From an uncultured Candidatus Binatia bacterium (GTDB lineage Bacteria > Desulfobacterota > Binatia > UBA9968 > JAJDTQ01): DNA of 64,000 bases. A model generated the notes under the pieces. The model saw only the letters and a program-made list of their open reading frames with translations. It was not told where the DNA came from and made no database searches. Below, piece by piece: positions 32,083 to 64,000 of this stretch (positions within the stretch are counted from its first letter, which is position 1; each line of letters begins with the position of its first letter). The translations under genes and the position numbers were made by a program. The DNA is taken from positions 288,001 to 352,000 of the forward strand of contig OZ251459.1 of NCBI GenBank assembly GCA_965242525.1. The letters run 5' to 3'.

Positions 32083-32564
32083 GCGCGGGTTACAGGGTCG
32101 GCCAGGGCTTCGACGTCCACCGCCTCGCGCCCGGCCGAAAGCTGGTCCTCGGCGGCGTCCACATCCCGCATCCGGCAGGCCTGTGGGGTCACTCGGACGC
32201 CGACGTGCTGCTCCATGCCCTGATGAACGCGGTGCTCGGCGCCATTGGCAAGGGAGACATCGGGACCCATTTCCCGGACACGGACCCGGAGTTCGAGGGG
32301 GTTTCGAGCACGGGCCTGCTGGACCGCGTGCTTCGGCTCATGCGGCAGGCGGGGTTCGGCGTCGTGAACGTGGACGTCACCGTCATCGCCCAGCAGCCTC
32401 GGCTGGCGCCGCACTTCGGCGCGGTCCGGACCCGCTTGGCGGGCCTCCTGGAAGTGCCCGAGGAGGTGGTCAACCTGAAGGCCGGCACCATGGAAGGCCT
32501 CGGTCCCATCGGCGAGGGCCGGGCCATGGCGGCGATGGCGGTGGTGCTACTCCGGTCCGTGTGA
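32079..32564 (+). CDS. ispF: 2-C-methyl-D-erythritol 2,4-cyclodiphosphate synthase
   Basis: RVGQGFDVHR, GHSDADVLLHA, GDIGTHFPDTD. Start probably CTG 32079 (alternative GTG 32055). Confidence 0.93.
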   Translation: MSAGYRVGQGFDVHRLAPGRKLVLGGVHIPHPAGLWGHSDADVLLHALMNAVLGAIGKGDIGTHFPDTDPEFEGVSSTGLLDRVLRLMRQAGFGVVNVDVTVIAQQPRLAPHFGAVRTRLAGLLEVPEEVVNLKAGTMEGLGPIGEGRAMAAMAVVLLRSV

Positions 32565-35207
32565 CTCGACCCCGTCGCAGGTTTCCGGGAATCCGCCGCC
32601 GGCCGAGCGGGCGAGAGCCACCGTACCGCGGTGGCCGTCGATGGTGATCCGGTGTCCGCTCGCGATGCGCTTCGTCGCATCGTCCACGCCCATCACCGCG
32701 GGGATGCCGTACTCCCGCACAAGCATGGAACCGTGGGCCAGCGGCCCGCCGATGTCCGTCACCAGGCCAATGGCCTGGTCGAAGAGCTGCATCCACGCCG
32801 GGGCGATGTTCGGGCACACCAGGATGCGGTTGGGCTTCATCTTGTGGAAGTCGGTCCGGGAGCGGATGACGCACGCCTCTCCGGTCACCCGTCCCGGGCT
32901 CACCGGGGAGCCCCGCAGCACGCGGCCCCGGTCCGCGTCGGGTTCCGTGACCGCGGGCGCGTCCCTGTCCTCCGGCCCGATGGTGTGCGGAGGACGCAAG
33001 GACTTGCGGGCTTCCCGCAGTGCGCGCCGCCTCTCCGCGGTGCGCAACAGGTGGGGCAAGGCCCGGCCCTGCCGGCGCGCCTCGCTGGCCGCGGCGATCT
33101 CGCCGCCGGTCAGGTGGAAAGCGTCCGCGGGCGCCGCCAGGGTCCCCGCCTCCGCCAGACGCCGTCCCAGCTCCAGCGCCAGCGGGCGCAGCACCAACCA
33201 CGCGGCGCCCATGAAGAACAGCGCTTCTTCCCGATACGAGTGGGAACGTCGGGCGAGCCATGCGCGGTGGCGGAGTCGCCAGCGCCGGAAGCCGCGGAAC
33301 GCCGTTCCCGCGGCCCGGGACGCGGGAACGGGCGGGGTCCGGTCCTGCGCGTGCGGTCCGCGTTCGGGGCCCCGGACCAACCGCTGCAGGGTCTGCAGGA
33401 CCTGCCCGGGGTCTTCGGCCATGGCGGGCTCCACGAAATCCAGCGTATAGACCTGGTGGCCGTAGCGACGGATGTACCCGTCGAGGGCGGCGCTCGCCGC
33501 GGCCCCGTCCGCATGGTTCCGAAGCGCCTCCCGCAGGCGTTCCACCGGGGTGGCGAGCGCCAGTTCGCGGAGCGCCGCGCTGGCCCGGACTTCCTCGGCC
33601 AGCGCGCGCAGTTCCGCCCGGGCGCGCATGGCCGGTGACGGCAGCGCGCCGAGGAACCGGGCGTTGGCGAGGTCGGCGTCCGCGGCGTTCTCTTGCAGGA
33701 AACGGCGCAGCCGGTACTCCCTGCGCCTTGCGTGGATGATGGCCAGGTAGGCGCCGTCGTACCAGTAGCTAGCGTCGGCCCGGGCCAGGGCGCGTATCCC
33801 GGACAGCAGCGTCTCGTCGTCCGCGTCGCCGGGGGCCACCCGCGCCCACTCCTCGATGGCCGCCAAGTAAGCCGGCAGGGCCTTGCGGCGCCAACGGGAG
33901 ACCAGCCAGAAGTAGAGCGCGAACCCGCGGCGCGCCTTCTCCATCCACCGGGAGAGACGGCCGTCGCGACTCGGCGCCGCCCCCTCTTCCCGCAGGCGGC
34001 TCCACACGCCGAACCGCCTGTAGGCAAAGCCGTTCACGGTGACGTGGGTGAGCAGACGCGCGGACGGCATGCCGTCCCGCAACGGGTCCACGCCCCTGGC
34101 CCGGAGGAACCAGCGCGCCCAGGGCTCCCGGCACGCCTCGGTCAGGTACACGTCCTCGAACAGCTTCGATACCGGCTCGATCAGGTACTCGACGATCTGG
34201 ATCCGTTTCAGGACGGCGTCCGGTTCCGGCGGTTCCCAGCGGACGTCGGGCGGCGGCTCCGGCGGCAGGCGGGTAATGGGGCGCGACTGGAGGAGCCACG
34301 GCTTGCCGCCCGCGACGGCCCATTCGATGTCCTGGGGCGCGCCCTCCAGGAGGCGTTCCGCCGCGACGCCCAGGCGGACGATCTCCTCGACCAGCGGCGC
34401 CGGCAGCGACGGTTCGCCGCGCCGGGCCGGGTCCACCGGGACTATGCGCGTGCCAGACTCCGCGGCCACCGCCATGCGCTCCTTGGGGCCGACGGTGGTC
34501 TCCCGGACGGCCAGGGCGCCGCGGTCCACCACGTAAACGTCCGGCGTCACCCGTCCGCCGACGATGGCCTCGCCGAGACCGTAGCCGGCGTTGACCACGG
34601 CCTCGGAGCGCTCGCCGGTGACCGGGTTGGCGGTGAACAGGACGCCGGAGACCTCGGCATCCACCATGCGCTGCACCACCACCGCCATGGACGGCTCGTG
34701 GCGGATGCCCATCCGGCGCCGGTAGCCGAGGGCCCGGGCGGTCCACAGGGAGGCCCAGCAACGGCGCACGGCCGACAGCACCGCGTCCTCCCCGCGCACG
34801 TTCAGGAACGTCTCGTACAGGCCGGCGAACGAGAGTCCCGGCAGGTCCTCGGCGGTGGCGGACGAACGCACCGCCACCGCGGGTTCTCCCGCGCCGAGTC
34901 GGCGGTACGCGCGGCCCAACTCGGCCGCTACGTCGGCCGGCAACGCCGCGTTCTCGAAGCGTTCCCGGATGCGGGAGGACGCCCGTTCGAACGAGCCCCT
35001 GCCCTCGGCGTCGAGGGCAGGCCTCGCAAGCTCCCGCAGCGTCGCCCGCAGGCGGTTGGAATCGACGAAACGCTCGTAGGCCGAGCTCGTCAGGATGAAG
35101 CCGCCGGGCACCGGGAAGCCCGCCCTCGACAGCCGCGCCAGCCGCACGCCCTTGCCGCCGACGACTTCGAGCGGCGCGTCCCCGGTTTCCAGAGGCAGGA
35201 CGGTCAT
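32547..35207 (-). CDS. PPDK/PEP-synthase-like phosphotransferase, rifampin-phosphotransferase-type domain order (ATP-grasp, central domain, C-terminal phospho-His swivel)
   Basis: VGGKG..GFPVPGGF, AVRSSATAEDL..SFAG, PQDIEWA, LLQSRPIT; C-terminal TDIGGPLAHGS..REYGIPAV. Confidence 0.8.
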   Translation of the reverse strand: MTVLPLETGDAPLEVVGGKGVRLARLSRAGFPVPGGFILTSSAYERFVDSNRLRATLRELARPALDAEGRGSFERASSRIRERFENAALPADVAAELGRAYRRLGAGEPAVAVRSSATAEDLPGLSFAGLYETFLNVRGEDAVLSAVRRCWASLWTARALGYRRRMGIRHEPSMAVVVQRMVDAEVSGVLFTANPVTGERSEAVVNAGYGLGEAIVGGRVTPDVYVVDRGALAVRETTVGPKERMAVAAESGTRIVPVDPARRGEPSLPAPLVEEIVRLGVAAERLLEGAPQDIEWAVAGGKPWLLQSRPITRLPPEPPPDVRWEPPEPDAVLKRIQIVEYLIEPVSKLFEDVYLTEACREPWARWFLRARGVDPLRDGMPSARLLTHVTVNGFAYRRFGVWSRLREEGAAPSRDGRLSRWMEKARRGFALYFWLVSRWRRKALPAYLAAIEEWARVAPGDADDETLLSGIRALARADASYWYDGAYLAIIHARRREYRLRRFLQENAADADLANARFLGALPSPAMRARAELRALAEEVRASAALRELALATPVERLREALRNHADGAAASAALDGYIRRYGHQVYTLDFVEPAMAEDPGQVLQTLQRLVRGPERGPHAQDRTPPVPASRAAGTAFRGFRRWRLRHRAWLARRSHSYREEALFFMGAAWLVLRPLALELGRRLAEAGTLAAPADAFHLTGGEIAAASEARRQGRALPHLLRTAERRRALREARKSLRPPHTIGPEDRDAPAVTEPDADRGRVLRGSPVSPGRVTGEACVIRSRTDFHKMKPNRILVCPNIAPAWMQLFDQAIGLVTDIGGPLAHGSMLVREYGIPAVMGVDDATKRIASGHRITIDGHRGTVALARSAGGGFPETCDGVESHGPE

Positions 35208-63164: not shown

Positions 63165-64000
63165 AGCCTCCCGGTCTCCGTCCGGAACGCCTCACCCTGT
63201 GGTTGCTGCTGCTCGCACTGTCCACGTTGTTCCTGTGCAACGTGGACAAGGGGTACTTCTACCGTCCCGGCAGCCCCAACTGGAATACGGCGAAGAACCT
63301 GGCCATCGCCGAGAACCTGTCGCCCCACCACCGTTTCCGGTTGTCGCCGGGGCTGCGCCCGGGACCGGGCGGCGCCCCCGCCTACGAACTGTACAGCCGC
63401 TTTCCCGTGGGCGGTTACGCGCTCATCAAACTCGCCATCCTCCCCTTCGGGAACGACCTGTCCGCAAAAATCCTCGCCGCCCGAATGCTCATGTTGCTCT
63501 TGTTCAGCGGCGCCGCGCTCCTGGCCTTCCACTCCCTCGCCCGGATCACCTCCCGCCGATGGGTCGCATTGGCCGCCACCCTCACGGCGTTCTCCTCCTA
63601 CTACATGCTGTTGTACGGCAACGCGGTTTCGGTGGAGTACAGCGTGGACCTGTTCGCGGTCATGCTGGCCTTCCACGGCATGGTGGTGTTCGTGCAGGAG
63701 GGACGGTTCCGGCAGTTGCTGGCCAGGACCTGCGTTGCGCTGCTGCTGGGGTGGCGCGTGTACGCCTTCCTGCTTCCCTTCATCCTCCTGGGCCTGGGGA
63801 GCGAGGCGGTCCGGGCGTGGAAGGACGGGACTGCGGTGAGGCTGCGCTCCGCCGGGGCTGCGGTGCTGCGCAGCCGCTACACGGCCCTTGGCCTGGCCGC
63901 GCTGCTGTTCGGCGCGGCCGTCCTGGGCTTCAACTTCGCCAACGAGTACACCGCCTTCCGAGGCGAGACGCCGGTGACCGAACTGCCGTCGTTCCAGTCC
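63161..64000 (+). CDS. uncharacterised polytopic membrane protein, paralog D (runs off the window)
   Basis: ATGA overlap with C. Manual translation: MKPPGLRPERLTLWLLLLALSTLFLCNVDKGYFYRPGSPNWNTAKNLAIAENLSP..; open to 64000. Confidence 0.7.
   Translation, partial: MKPPGLRPERLTLWLLLLALSTLFLCNVDKGYFYRPGSPNWNTAKNLAIAENLSPHHRFRLSPGLRPGPGGAPAYELYSRFPVGGYALIKLAILPFGNDLSAKILAARMLMLLLFSGAALLAFHSLARITSRRWVALAATLTAFSSYYMLLYGNAVSVEYSVDLFAVMLAFHGMVVFVQEGRFRQLLARTCVALLLGWRVYAFLLPFILLGLGSEAVRAWKDGTAVRLRSAGAAVLRSRYTALGLAALLFGAAVLGFNFANEYTAFRGETPVTELPSFQS

Follow-up and report, generated by a model that had tools for sequence, protein, structure and literature searches.

The stretch analyzed here (the window) comprises 64,000 nucleotides (nt) of an uncultured Candidatus Binatia bacterium (contig OZ251459.1, positions 288,001 to 352,000) and carries four copies, A to D, of a gene for a polytopic membrane protein of about 700 amino acids (aa). 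With the copies found elsewhere in the same genome they make up 29 loci. Judged by their predicted fold, A-D are a very divergent, unnamed branch of the GT-C(A) glycosyltransferases of the ArnT/PMT/STT3 type, and we consider it probable that the family acts as a phase-variable, recombining repertoire of surface-glycan-modifying enzymes. An initial annotation of the window had tied these genes to a sulfotransferase and to a phosphotransferase related to pyruvate phosphate dikinase (PPDK); the mechanism that it proposed is largely replaced here. G000 denotes the genome of the window, C1 its chromosome (4.15 Mb), and G036 a sister genome, while L-numbers denote fetched loci. Positions without a prefix are those of the window.

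Copies and fold of the membrane protein family

Paralogs A to D share 77-81% nt identity in pairwise comparison over about 2 kb and up to 89% in the first 800 nt, which agrees with their initial description as four close paralogs. The genome-wide count that the initial annotation had suggested gave a number well above four, with 29 paralog loci located by tblastn on the G000 chromosome (28 intact and one split). Together these loci sum to 58.7 kb, or 1.39% of the 4.2-Mb genome, and 11 of the paralogs form a tandem array at C1:938573-962156. Identity between paralogs has a median of 68% (range 63-88%). The G+C content at third codon positions (GC3) is 0.81-0.85 in the paralogs and 0.88-0.96 in most of their neighbors, and the surroundings of the window copies showed neither a transposase nor a repeat boundary. 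The 549-aa membrane protein encoded at 40732-42381 (plus strand) had been counted as a distant fifth paralog. We rejected it as a member of the family because it has no detectable homology to A-D (hhalign probability against the family profile 0.1%). It is a separate GT-C-like protein that matches NCBIfam NF047440 (LA_3751/LA_3752 family) at 3e-9, below the model cut-off, and Pfam PMT at 0.12, and its gene is kept in G036 at 74% identity with the same neighbors.

Structure prediction was the main guide to the nature of these proteins. The AlphaFold2 model of A, for which the input was an alignment of A and 49 cluster representatives, has a predicted local distance difference test score (pLDDT) of 86.5 and a predicted template modeling score of 0.90. 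In the predicted layout, about 13 helices form the membrane core (residues 12-479), and a periplasmic domain with an alpha/beta part and a beta-sandwich follows (residues 481-697). In a Foldseek search of the PDB, every match at E<=0.001 was a GT-C enzyme. VIA-align of the A model gave a Z of 22.6 for ArnT (5f15; 422 residues aligned, root-mean-square deviation 4.7), values in the range of 20-21 for Pmt1-2, 20.9 for Pmt4, 19.8 for ALG12, and 19.7 for STT3, and the 48 top VIA-align entries are GT-C-fold chains without exception. The initial annotation had called the paralogs GT-C-like and had proposed a fold check against ArnT, PMT, and STT3; the AlphaFold2 model, Foldseek, and VIA-align all bear it out.

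Sequence comparison gave much weaker signals. None of A, B, C, and D matched Pfam at E<=0.01. At E<=10 the only Pfam match of A was an unrelated one at 0.12, and at E<=0.1 A matched nothing in NCBIfam. A family profile compared with all PDB sequences recovered no solved GT-C protein and returned three spurious matches only. Weak Pfam PMT matches are present in 7 of 50 family members (best E 2e-6), and the ESM Atlas neighbors of the family include PMT_2 and RgtA-D-like clusters. Because A-D are unmatched and only 7 of 50 relatives match weakly, the family is best regarded as a remote relative, not a member, of Pfam PMT/PMT_2 (GT39/GT83).

Ten residues are invariant in all 28 open G000 copies (D34, R84, K94, H176, Q189, W202, N262, C608, C658, and W689), and position 266 is E in 27 copies and D in one. 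Residue D34 lies four residues past the first transmembrane helix (TM1), and D or E occupies this place in 37 of 50 family members. The cysteine pair C608/C658 lies in the terminal beta-sandwich domain, where its conservation would fit a periplasmic location. When the C-terminal 120 residues were folded alone, they gave an Ig/FN3/CBM-like beta-sandwich (pLDDT 83) that had no Foldseek match at E<=0.001, and its best VIA-wide Z, 7.0, was shared with many unrelated Ig/FN3/CBM-like sandwiches. The modeled domain thus appears to be a generic beta-sandwich with no specific relative. Two PMT/PMT_2 proteins of G000, of 792 and 809 aa (C1:1171765-1174140, plus strand, and C1:3995675-3998101, minus strand), each contain two tandem copies of the C-terminal domain of the A-D family at 28-37% identity.

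A GT2 gene (C1:895570-896589) lies directly after the copy at C1:893445. It matches PgfS at 1.7e-86 and an ArnC-like model at 3.5e-52, both below cut-off, and PgfS/ArnC-like GT2 proteins are of the enzyme type that makes polyprenyl-phosphate sugars. The pair of paralog and GT2 is kept in G036 at 80% identity (L051), and L051 adjoins the C1:893445 clade in the tree described below. A 188-aa open reading frame (ORF) following the GT2 gene had no family match.

Variation, proposed switching, and distribution of the copies

Conservation is uneven along the protein. Residues 76-275, in the membrane core, are about 90% conserved, and the variable parts are residues 1-75, 276-400, and 576-697. Nonsynonymous (dN) and synonymous (dS) divergence were estimated with a Nei-Gojobori script. 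For dS the values are 0.13 among array copies and 0.32 when all copies are compared, and dN/dS is 0.25-0.35 in the transmembrane core, 0.88-0.93 in residues 1-85, and 0.97-1.18 in residues 576-697. By these ratios the membrane core is under purifying selection, and substitution in the first outer loop and in the terminal beta-sandwich roughly keeps pace with silent sites. The initial annotation had proposed that the membrane gene was amplified and diversified, and the 29 loci with their variable extracytoplasmic parts agree with this.

Segments have also moved between copies. Paralog B and the copy at C1:3920743, 3.6 Mb away, are 99-100% identical at the nt level over codons 351-600, third positions included, while the flanks are 63-77% identical and codons 601-697 are 63-70% identical. 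In a GENECONV-like site shuffle, which assumes even rates along the gene, the longest concordant run was unmatched by any of 300 shuffles in 21 of 378 pairs, and in 14 of the 323 pairs not both in the array. By these results the copies are mosaics, and dispersed copies swap segments by gene conversion.

Homopolymers of at least 12 nt are rare on C1 (25 only, all G or C, up to 32 nt long). Twelve of the 25 tracts were placed: two in paralogs, three in copies of a second family described below, and seven in or beside other genes. The two in paralogs are a C16 just past the start of the copy at 3085995-3087953 and a C18 exactly at the frame change of the split copy; the sites of these two tracts are C1:3088022 and C1:2293189. 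The genes at the seven other tracts are two LRR-FN3-Calx-beta genes, a He_PIG gene, a heparinase II/III-like gene, an arylsulfotransferase-like gene, an epimerase gene, and a ROK regulator gene. One tract, at C1:2560724, lies beside an LRR-FN3-Calx-beta ORF, and further C1 tract sites are found, for example, at 202146, 1788510, 3263009, and 3864605.

Related loci show the same association with homopolymers. Across 61 of them, 15 of 23 homopolymers of at least 10 nt fall in paralog genes and the 200 nt on either side, which make up about 28% of the DNA. Six G036 copies have C11-C26 at residues 2-23 in the context M-E-T-D-R-P-polyPro. Paralog A has a C7 run in the same place (35475-35481, plus strand; codons 7-9, M-K-T-D-R-P-C-P-P) and a second run, C9, at 36338-36346. 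Seven copies in one metagenome-assembled genome (MAG) of Dehalococcoidia have C12-C26 at residues 220-234, where one Nitrospirales copy has G10, and one Ca. Azophilus copy has C15 near residue 557. Eight tracts were read in all frames. The frame is kept in three of them (L072, L075, and L053), and in the other five (L086, L091, L093, L042, and L037) the frame is broken or the start codon is detached. Such breaks coincide with "split" copies in genomes from other phyla, and many matches there consist of an N-part plus a C-part because poly-C tracts break the frame. In the Dehalococcoidia MAG with the C12-C26 tracts, 4 of the 13 plus-strand tracts listed fall exactly in gaps between N-part and C-part. 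A phase switch at every copy was considered and rejected, as 6 of 28 G000 copies have a run of at least 7 nt near the start, 2 of 29 loci have one of at least 12 nt, and most G000 copies have no obvious switch.

A second expanded family accompanies the paralogs. Upstream of the copy at C1:1159504, a gene encodes a 414-aa protein that is anchored in the membrane at its N terminus and has the motifs GDSF and, at the C-terminal end, DGHW. The family of this protein shows weak Lipase_GDSL_2 and AlgX matches (SGNH/AlgX-like family). A five-copy array of this family abuts the GT-C copy at 3085995, and other members lie near the 11-copy array and near the copy at 893445. Some of its copies are also split at poly-C tracts. 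Within the genus it occurs in the same 2 of 28 genomes as the GT-C family (20 and 24 matches). This probably reflects one event, since G000 and G036 are kin and their co-distribution counts once. Among five genomes of other phyla that hold the GT-C family, four have it (7, 15, 2, and 20 matches) and G042 has none.

The GT-C family is large in public data, with 1049 representatives at 50% identity (E<=1e-3), or 357 at E<=1e-30. Among its 120 best matches in a second collection, clustered at 90% identity, none is named and none has a Pfam domain. It is patchily distributed, being present in 2 of 28 genomes of the genus (G000 and G036) and in 0 of 12 other genomes of the order. Multiple copies occur in MAGs titled Dehalococcoidia, Latescibacterota, and Nitrospirales, and single loci in MAGs titled Vicinamibacterales and Ca. 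Azophilus. The five genomes of other phyla (G040-G044) have 64, 10, 9, 7, and 15 matches; the 64 are in a 3.5-Mb Dehalococcoidia genome, and the 15 are in another, 14 of them in one array. Because the family is found in diderm and monoderm phyla, an acceptor restricted to lipopolysaccharide (LPS) seems unlikely.

Phylogenetic analysis (FastTree) included 114 proteins: 28 from G000, 43 from G036, and 43 from other phyla, with four relatives shorter than 600 aa and the split G000 copy left out. The tree clusters by genome, with clades of 19 G000-only copies, 23 G036-only copies, and 19 copies from a single Dehalococcoidia MAG. The G000 and G036 copies together form one clade with a Shimodaira-Hasegawa-like support of 100.

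In sequencing runs labeled as sponge metagenomes, 21-31% of the words sampled from a 9.8-kb stretch are present. In one such run, contigs are 96-99% identical to the unique flanks, and the contigs of the four runs compared break at the paralogs. Among 22 runs considered, no RNA run contained the locus. Binatota have been reported from sponge microbiomes (PMC9999580). Literature searches on Binatota in sponges, sponge symbionts, GT-C paralog expansion, and Dehalococcoidia gave no description of the family, and a term search of one further paper gave no passages on glycosyltransferase, paralog, or expansion (PMC9531527).

Sulfotransferase remnants and the setting of the paralogs

Genes across the window, in which the DNA is about 68% G+C, were called from third-position GC together with Pfam and NCBIfam (Table 1). 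The paralogs of the window are scattered among housekeeping genes and do not form a single cassette. The cytochrome c oxidase cluster between B and C, for example, is an ordinary housekeeping context. A consistent gene partner was also rejected: 81 ORFs neighboring the G000 copies proved heterogeneous, mostly metabolic, transport, or housekeeping genes, with envelope genes (GT4, epimerase, deacetylases, Kdo transferase, and LptF/G) scattered near some copies.

Table 1. Coordinates of the paralogs, of the sulfotransferase and PPDK-like sequences, and of other features in the window and on the chromosome (C1).
Feature	Position	Strand	Remarks
PEP-synthase/rifampicin-phosphotransferase-like (PPDK-like) gene, 886 aa	32547-35207	-	Pfam PPDK_N 2.9e-90, PEP-utilizers 7.3e-21
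Sulfotransferase scar 1	35178-35406	-	Directly upstream of A; tblastn residues 1-28, E 2e-4
Paralog A, 697 aa	35455-37548	+	ORF and GC3 frame
Duplicate of PPDK-like gene 5' end, 33 nt	37548-37580	-	After the intact sulfotransferase; 91% identity to 35178-35210
Sulfotransfer_2 gene, 292 aa, intact	37594-38472	-	Pfam Sulfotransfer_2 E 1.5e-11
Acetyl-CoA synthetase	38567-40513	-	
549-aa membrane protein	40732-42381	+	Separate GT-C-like protein
DCC1-like gene			Between the 549-aa membrane protein and the polysaccharide deacetylase
Polysaccharide deacetylase	43457-44491	+	Pfam Polysacc_deac_1 3.6e-20; convergent with B
Paralog B, 707 aa	44451-46574	-	78% nt identity to A over 2 kb
Amidohydrolase gene, CopD-like gene			Between paralog B and the cytochrome oxidase cluster
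Cytochrome c oxidase cluster (COX2, COX1, CtaA, UbiA/CtaB-like, COX3, COX4_pro, DUF420)	48665-55300	+	
Inositol-monophosphatase-family gene			Between the cytochrome oxidase cluster and the ABC transporter
ABC transporter	56459-60783	-	
Sulfotransferase scar 2	60902-61114	-	Internal fragment, residues 67-133; abuts C 5' end; tblastn E 6e-7
Paralog C	61029/61068-63164	+	Candidate ATG starts 61029, 61044, 61068
Paralog D	63161 to C1:353275 (past window end)	+	Start overlaps C stop (ATGA)
Third sulfotransferase fragment	C1:938294-938468		Upstream of the 11-copy array
SGNH/AlgX-like family loci (about 17 in G000; about 10 more besides the ranges given)	C1:1157914-1159155; C1:3079532-3085842; C1:902904-905356; C1:966640-967857	-; -; +; +	

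The window contains one intact sulfotransferase gene and two fragments of such a gene, three occurrences in all, and tblastn and blastn agree with the initial annotation on this point. In the whole G000 genome, tblastn found one intact sulfotransferase and three fragments. Both remnants in the window are on the minus strand, one immediately 5' of A and the other immediately 5' of C, in the head-to-head arrangement that had been noted. Scar 1 is a collapsed sulfotransferase without about 745 nt of the gene interior. Its 3' piece (35178-35271) corresponds to 37548-37642 at 82%, and the piece holding the 5' end and upstream sequence (35266-35406) corresponds to 38387-38531 at 80%. In scar 2, blastn aligned 60910-61081 with 38082-38256 at 80.6%. 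A 50-nt piece of the sulfotransferase upstream region is also found after D (C1:353314-353363), and the C-D locus resembles a duplicate of the A locus that no longer has the interior of the sulfotransferase. A joint in one contig (37554 to 38542, with 35 letters between) was considered as a deletion of the sulfotransferase and is read instead as cross-mapping of the locus downstream of D (C1:353275-353363).

The PPDK-like gene, for which every NCBIfam match is below the model cut-off, has a single G000 copy and one weak homolog. Its start does lie twice next to sulfotransferase sequence, as the initial annotation had observed, the second time as the repeated 33 nt listed in Table 1. The deacetylase likewise abuts B, overlapping its 3' end, and this convergent pair of a deacetylase and a B-type paralog is found in G036 as well (L034). 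The syntenic region of G036 has the PPDK-like gene, the same sulfotransferase scar (L048), two paralogs, the gene for the 549-aa protein, the deacetylase, and a B-like copy. At another G036 locus (L052) a paralog stands head-to-head with an intact sulfotransferase, and because of this pair the ancestral unit of sulfotransferase and paralog is real.

The reach of this unit is narrow. In G000, three paralog loci are flanked by pieces of the sulfotransferase region, whose identity of about 80% is like that of the paralogs themselves, and the other G000 paralog loci showed no sulfotransferase or PPDK similarity at the thresholds used. The initial annotation had named a lack of linkage at paralogs elsewhere as a refuting outcome. 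That outcome was obtained: about 6 kb around each of 31 paralog loci from other phyla (L064-L094) contained no sulfotransferase, PPDK-like, or deacetylase similarity (tblastn, E<=1e-5). Linkage to sulfotransferase and PPDK-like sequences was seen only in G000 and G036, at a single syntenic locus and the scars derived from it, and the fragments are best read as segmental-duplication scars of one ancestral locus. The idea of an ancestral unit that was copied therefore stands for this one locus, where the head-to-head pair in G036 and the scars in G000 speak for it, and it does not extend to the family. The functional tie that had been drawn to the sulfotransferase and the PPDK-like protein is not supported, with one gene of each against 29 paralogs in G000.

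Two other features of the window were recorded. A complete rRNA operon (16S, two tRNAs, 23S, and 5S) at 25444-30756 accounts for the low G+C content at 26-30 kb. A REP-like intergenic repeat of about 45-100 nt occurs at 10860-10946, 42371-42444, 43083-43148, 43273-43376, and 55315-55437, and flanks the small DCC1-like gene on both sides. Genome-wide it occupies about 760 distinct 100-nt bins, with a summed contig depth of about 100 times that of unique DNA.

Interpretation and comparison with known systems

In the repertoire that we favor, each copy would take a polyprenyl-phosphate sugar as donor and move the sugar, at the outer face of the inner membrane, onto a surface glycan or a secreted protein. 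The variable outer parts would decide which acceptor or position is used. Slippage in poly-C tracts would turn individual copies on and off, new chimeras would arise by gene conversion, and the population would show changing surface decorations, plausibly directed against recognition by phages or by a host (sponge). The SGNH/AlgX-like family would probably add or remove acyl groups on the same glycans. Segmental duplications would have spread copies from one ancestral locus, leaving the sulfotransferase and PPDK scars behind. A wider proposal is possible, and we hold it tentatively, at less than even confidence: the GT-C and SGNH/AlgX-like families, with poly-C switches and gene conversion, may form a toolkit for glycan variation that host-associated (sponge-type) bacteria share by horizontal transfer, each family having been amplified to tens of copies independently in at least three phyla. 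Such a toolkit would give one clone a combinatorial, heritable, and reversible diversity of surface sugars, an enzyme-level analogue of antigenic variation.

Several observations weigh against the repertoire. Membership in GT-C rests on the predicted fold, because A matches neither Pfam nor NCBIfam and the family profile finds no solved GT-C protein by sequence. The putative equivalence of D34 to the catalytic acid of ArnT/PMT is drawn from sequence order and secondary structure. The nearly invariant D158 is replaced by N in 6 of 28 copies (A, C, D, C1:371395, C1:893445, and C1:1159504), H44 is replaced in 7 of 28, and the two changes coincide in five of the six copies with N158. The combined change may mark a functional subtype with an altered metal or donor site, and the copies concerned might act differently or be inactive. 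A donor-synthase GT2 stands beside one copy only, and the sole GtrA-like (PF04138) match of the genome is distant (C1:139244). A dN/dS near 1 is as compatible with relaxed constraint as with positive selection. Nei-Gojobori counting underestimates dS under the strong GC3 bias, and because the bias lowers dS the differences between regions are more reliable than the values themselves. Homopolymer lengths from long reads are error-prone; the tracts themselves are real features, and assembly error may account for some of the in-frame and out-of-frame states. Clustering by genome can stem from gene conversion and not only from independent expansion, and the occurrence of the family in diderm as well as monoderm phyla points to no particular acceptor.

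Other explanations account for part of the evidence. The paralogs could be a fixed assembly line in which each copy performs a constant and different step of one envelope glycan, as in the mycobacterial Emb/Aft/Mpt enzymes. Such sets of GT-C paralogs are known, and some G000 copies do lie near the scattered envelope genes (GT4, epimerase, deacetylases, Kdo transferase, and LptF/G). We consider this unlikely, as the copies are young (dS 0.13-0.32) and mosaic, mostly cluster by genome instead of pairing off as one-to-one orthologs of G000 and G036, are missing from 26 of 28 genus genomes, carry frame-breaking poly-C tracts in some cases, and have mostly unrelated housekeeping neighbors. It is unlikely, too, that the family is a protein O-glycosylation repertoire of PMT-like enzymes, each reading a different secreted or surface protein through its beta-sandwich, and not a set that decorates glycans. 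The weak Pfam matches (7 of 50) are to PMT, Pmt4 and Pmt1-2 have Z values of 20-21, the occurrence in diderms and monoderms would speak against an LPS-specific acceptor, and the GT2 beside one copy is closest to PgfS (NCBIfam "glycosyltransferase PgfS"), which is part of a protein-glycosylation system of Streptococcus mutans. Set against this are the best structural match, ArnT, which is a lipid A modifier, and the co-distributed SGNH/AlgX-like family, which points to modification of polysaccharides.

Selfish or neutral amplification, in which copies spread by duplication and transfer without benefit while their fast parts decay, would explain the dN/dS of about 1 in the C-terminal subdomain and first loop, the GC3 of the paralogs (0.81-0.85, against 0.88-0.96 in most neighbors), and the patchy phyletic distribution. 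It is improbable in view of the 28 of 29 copies that are open over about 700 codons, the dN/dS of 0.25-0.35 in the transmembrane core, the nine polar residues, including the cysteine pair, that are present in every copy (with E266 in 27 of 28), and the lack of a transposase or repeat boundary around the copies of the window. The same expansion also recurs across phyla alongside a second surface-type family. Very unlikely is the initial proposal that the GT-C protein acts with the sulfotransferase and the PPDK/RPH-like phosphotransferase to sulfate or phosphorylate a surface glycan, the unit having been copied and the membrane gene alone kept. The intact head-to-head pair in G036 (L052), the sulfotransferase fragments upstream of A, C, and the array, and the order of PPDK-like gene, sulfotransferase scar, and paralog that G000 and G036 (L048) have in common all favor it. 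It is largely refuted by the 31 loci of other phyla, which have no sulfotransferase or PPDK similarity. The ratio of one sulfotransferase and one PPDK-like gene to 29 paralogs also counts against it, and the fragments, truncated and about 80% identical like the paralogs, fit passive scars. The intact G000 sulfotransferase, moreover, converges on A and is transcribed in the same direction as the acetyl-CoA synthetase gene.

If the repertoire of surface-glycan-modifying enzymes is the right reading, these proteins are a large unannotated enzyme family and a new sequence family within the GT-C superfamily, filling 1-3% of some symbiont genomes (the upper figure estimated from copy number times gene size). 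Gene amplification, gene conversion, and homopolymer phase switching would then be combined in one system. To our knowledge, these three routes of variation have so far been described mainly for antigens of pathogens and for single soluble glycosyltransferases. The family would also offer a handle on how uncultivated sponge-type symbionts of unrelated phyla manage recognition by host cells and phages. The lesson for annotation is to treat the sulfotransferase fragments as scars left by duplication, not as partners.

ArnT (GT83; 5EZM/5F15), PMT (GT39), and STT3-PglB-AglB (GT66) are the closest known enzymes in architecture. The family shares with them the predicted fold and order of domains, with a core of about 13 membrane helices and a periplasmic domain at the C terminus. 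It has conserved basic residues in the core, an acidic residue after TM1 (D34) that may be equivalent to their catalytic acid, and, beside one copy, a GT2 of the polyprenyl-phosphate-sugar-synthase type. It differs in that A has no significant match to the Pfam or NCBIfam GT-C models or to solved GT-C chains, in that the proteins end in an Ig-like beta-sandwich with a conserved cysteine pair, and in having 29-60 copies per genome where those enzymes usually have one or few. The mycobacterial Emb/Aft/Mpt set is similar in having several GT-C paralogs per genome, whereas the copies described here are young, mosaic, and specific to their genome, and 26 of 28 congeneric genomes lack them.

Phase-variable glycosyltransferase genes of lipooligosaccharide (LOS) and LPS synthesis carry homopolymer tracts in Neisseria (lgt), Haemophilus (lgtC/lic2A), Campylobacter, and Helicobacter. 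The present family resembles them in its poly-C or poly-G tracts within the reading frame, with both in-frame and out-of-frame states found, and in its relation to the surface, as other long G000 tracts lie in surface-protein genes. The LOS/LPS genes are single-copy and encode soluble or peripheral GT-A/GT-B enzymes, while here integral GT-C proteins are encoded by tens of recombining copies and the tract site varies by phylum (N-terminal tail, about residue 135, or about residue 230). The GtrABC systems that glucosylate O-antigen in Salmonella, Shigella, and their phages follow a similar logic in three components, with a GT-C enzyme that differs between serotypes, a flippase, and a synthase for the polyprenyl-phosphate sugar; several GtrC types use one common donor, and expression is phase-variable. 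Here there is no such operon, with one GT2 by one copy and the sole GtrA-like gene elsewhere. The proposed switch is slippage and not epigenetic, and the copy number is an order of magnitude higher.

Surface variation by recombination is known from Neisseria pilS/pilE, Borrelia vls, and Anaplasma msp2. In those families, as in this one, many dispersed or tandem copies exchange segments by gene conversion, and variation lies in the exposed part. The variable product there is the antigen itself, with silent cassettes that feed one expression site, whereas here every copy is a complete enzyme gene.

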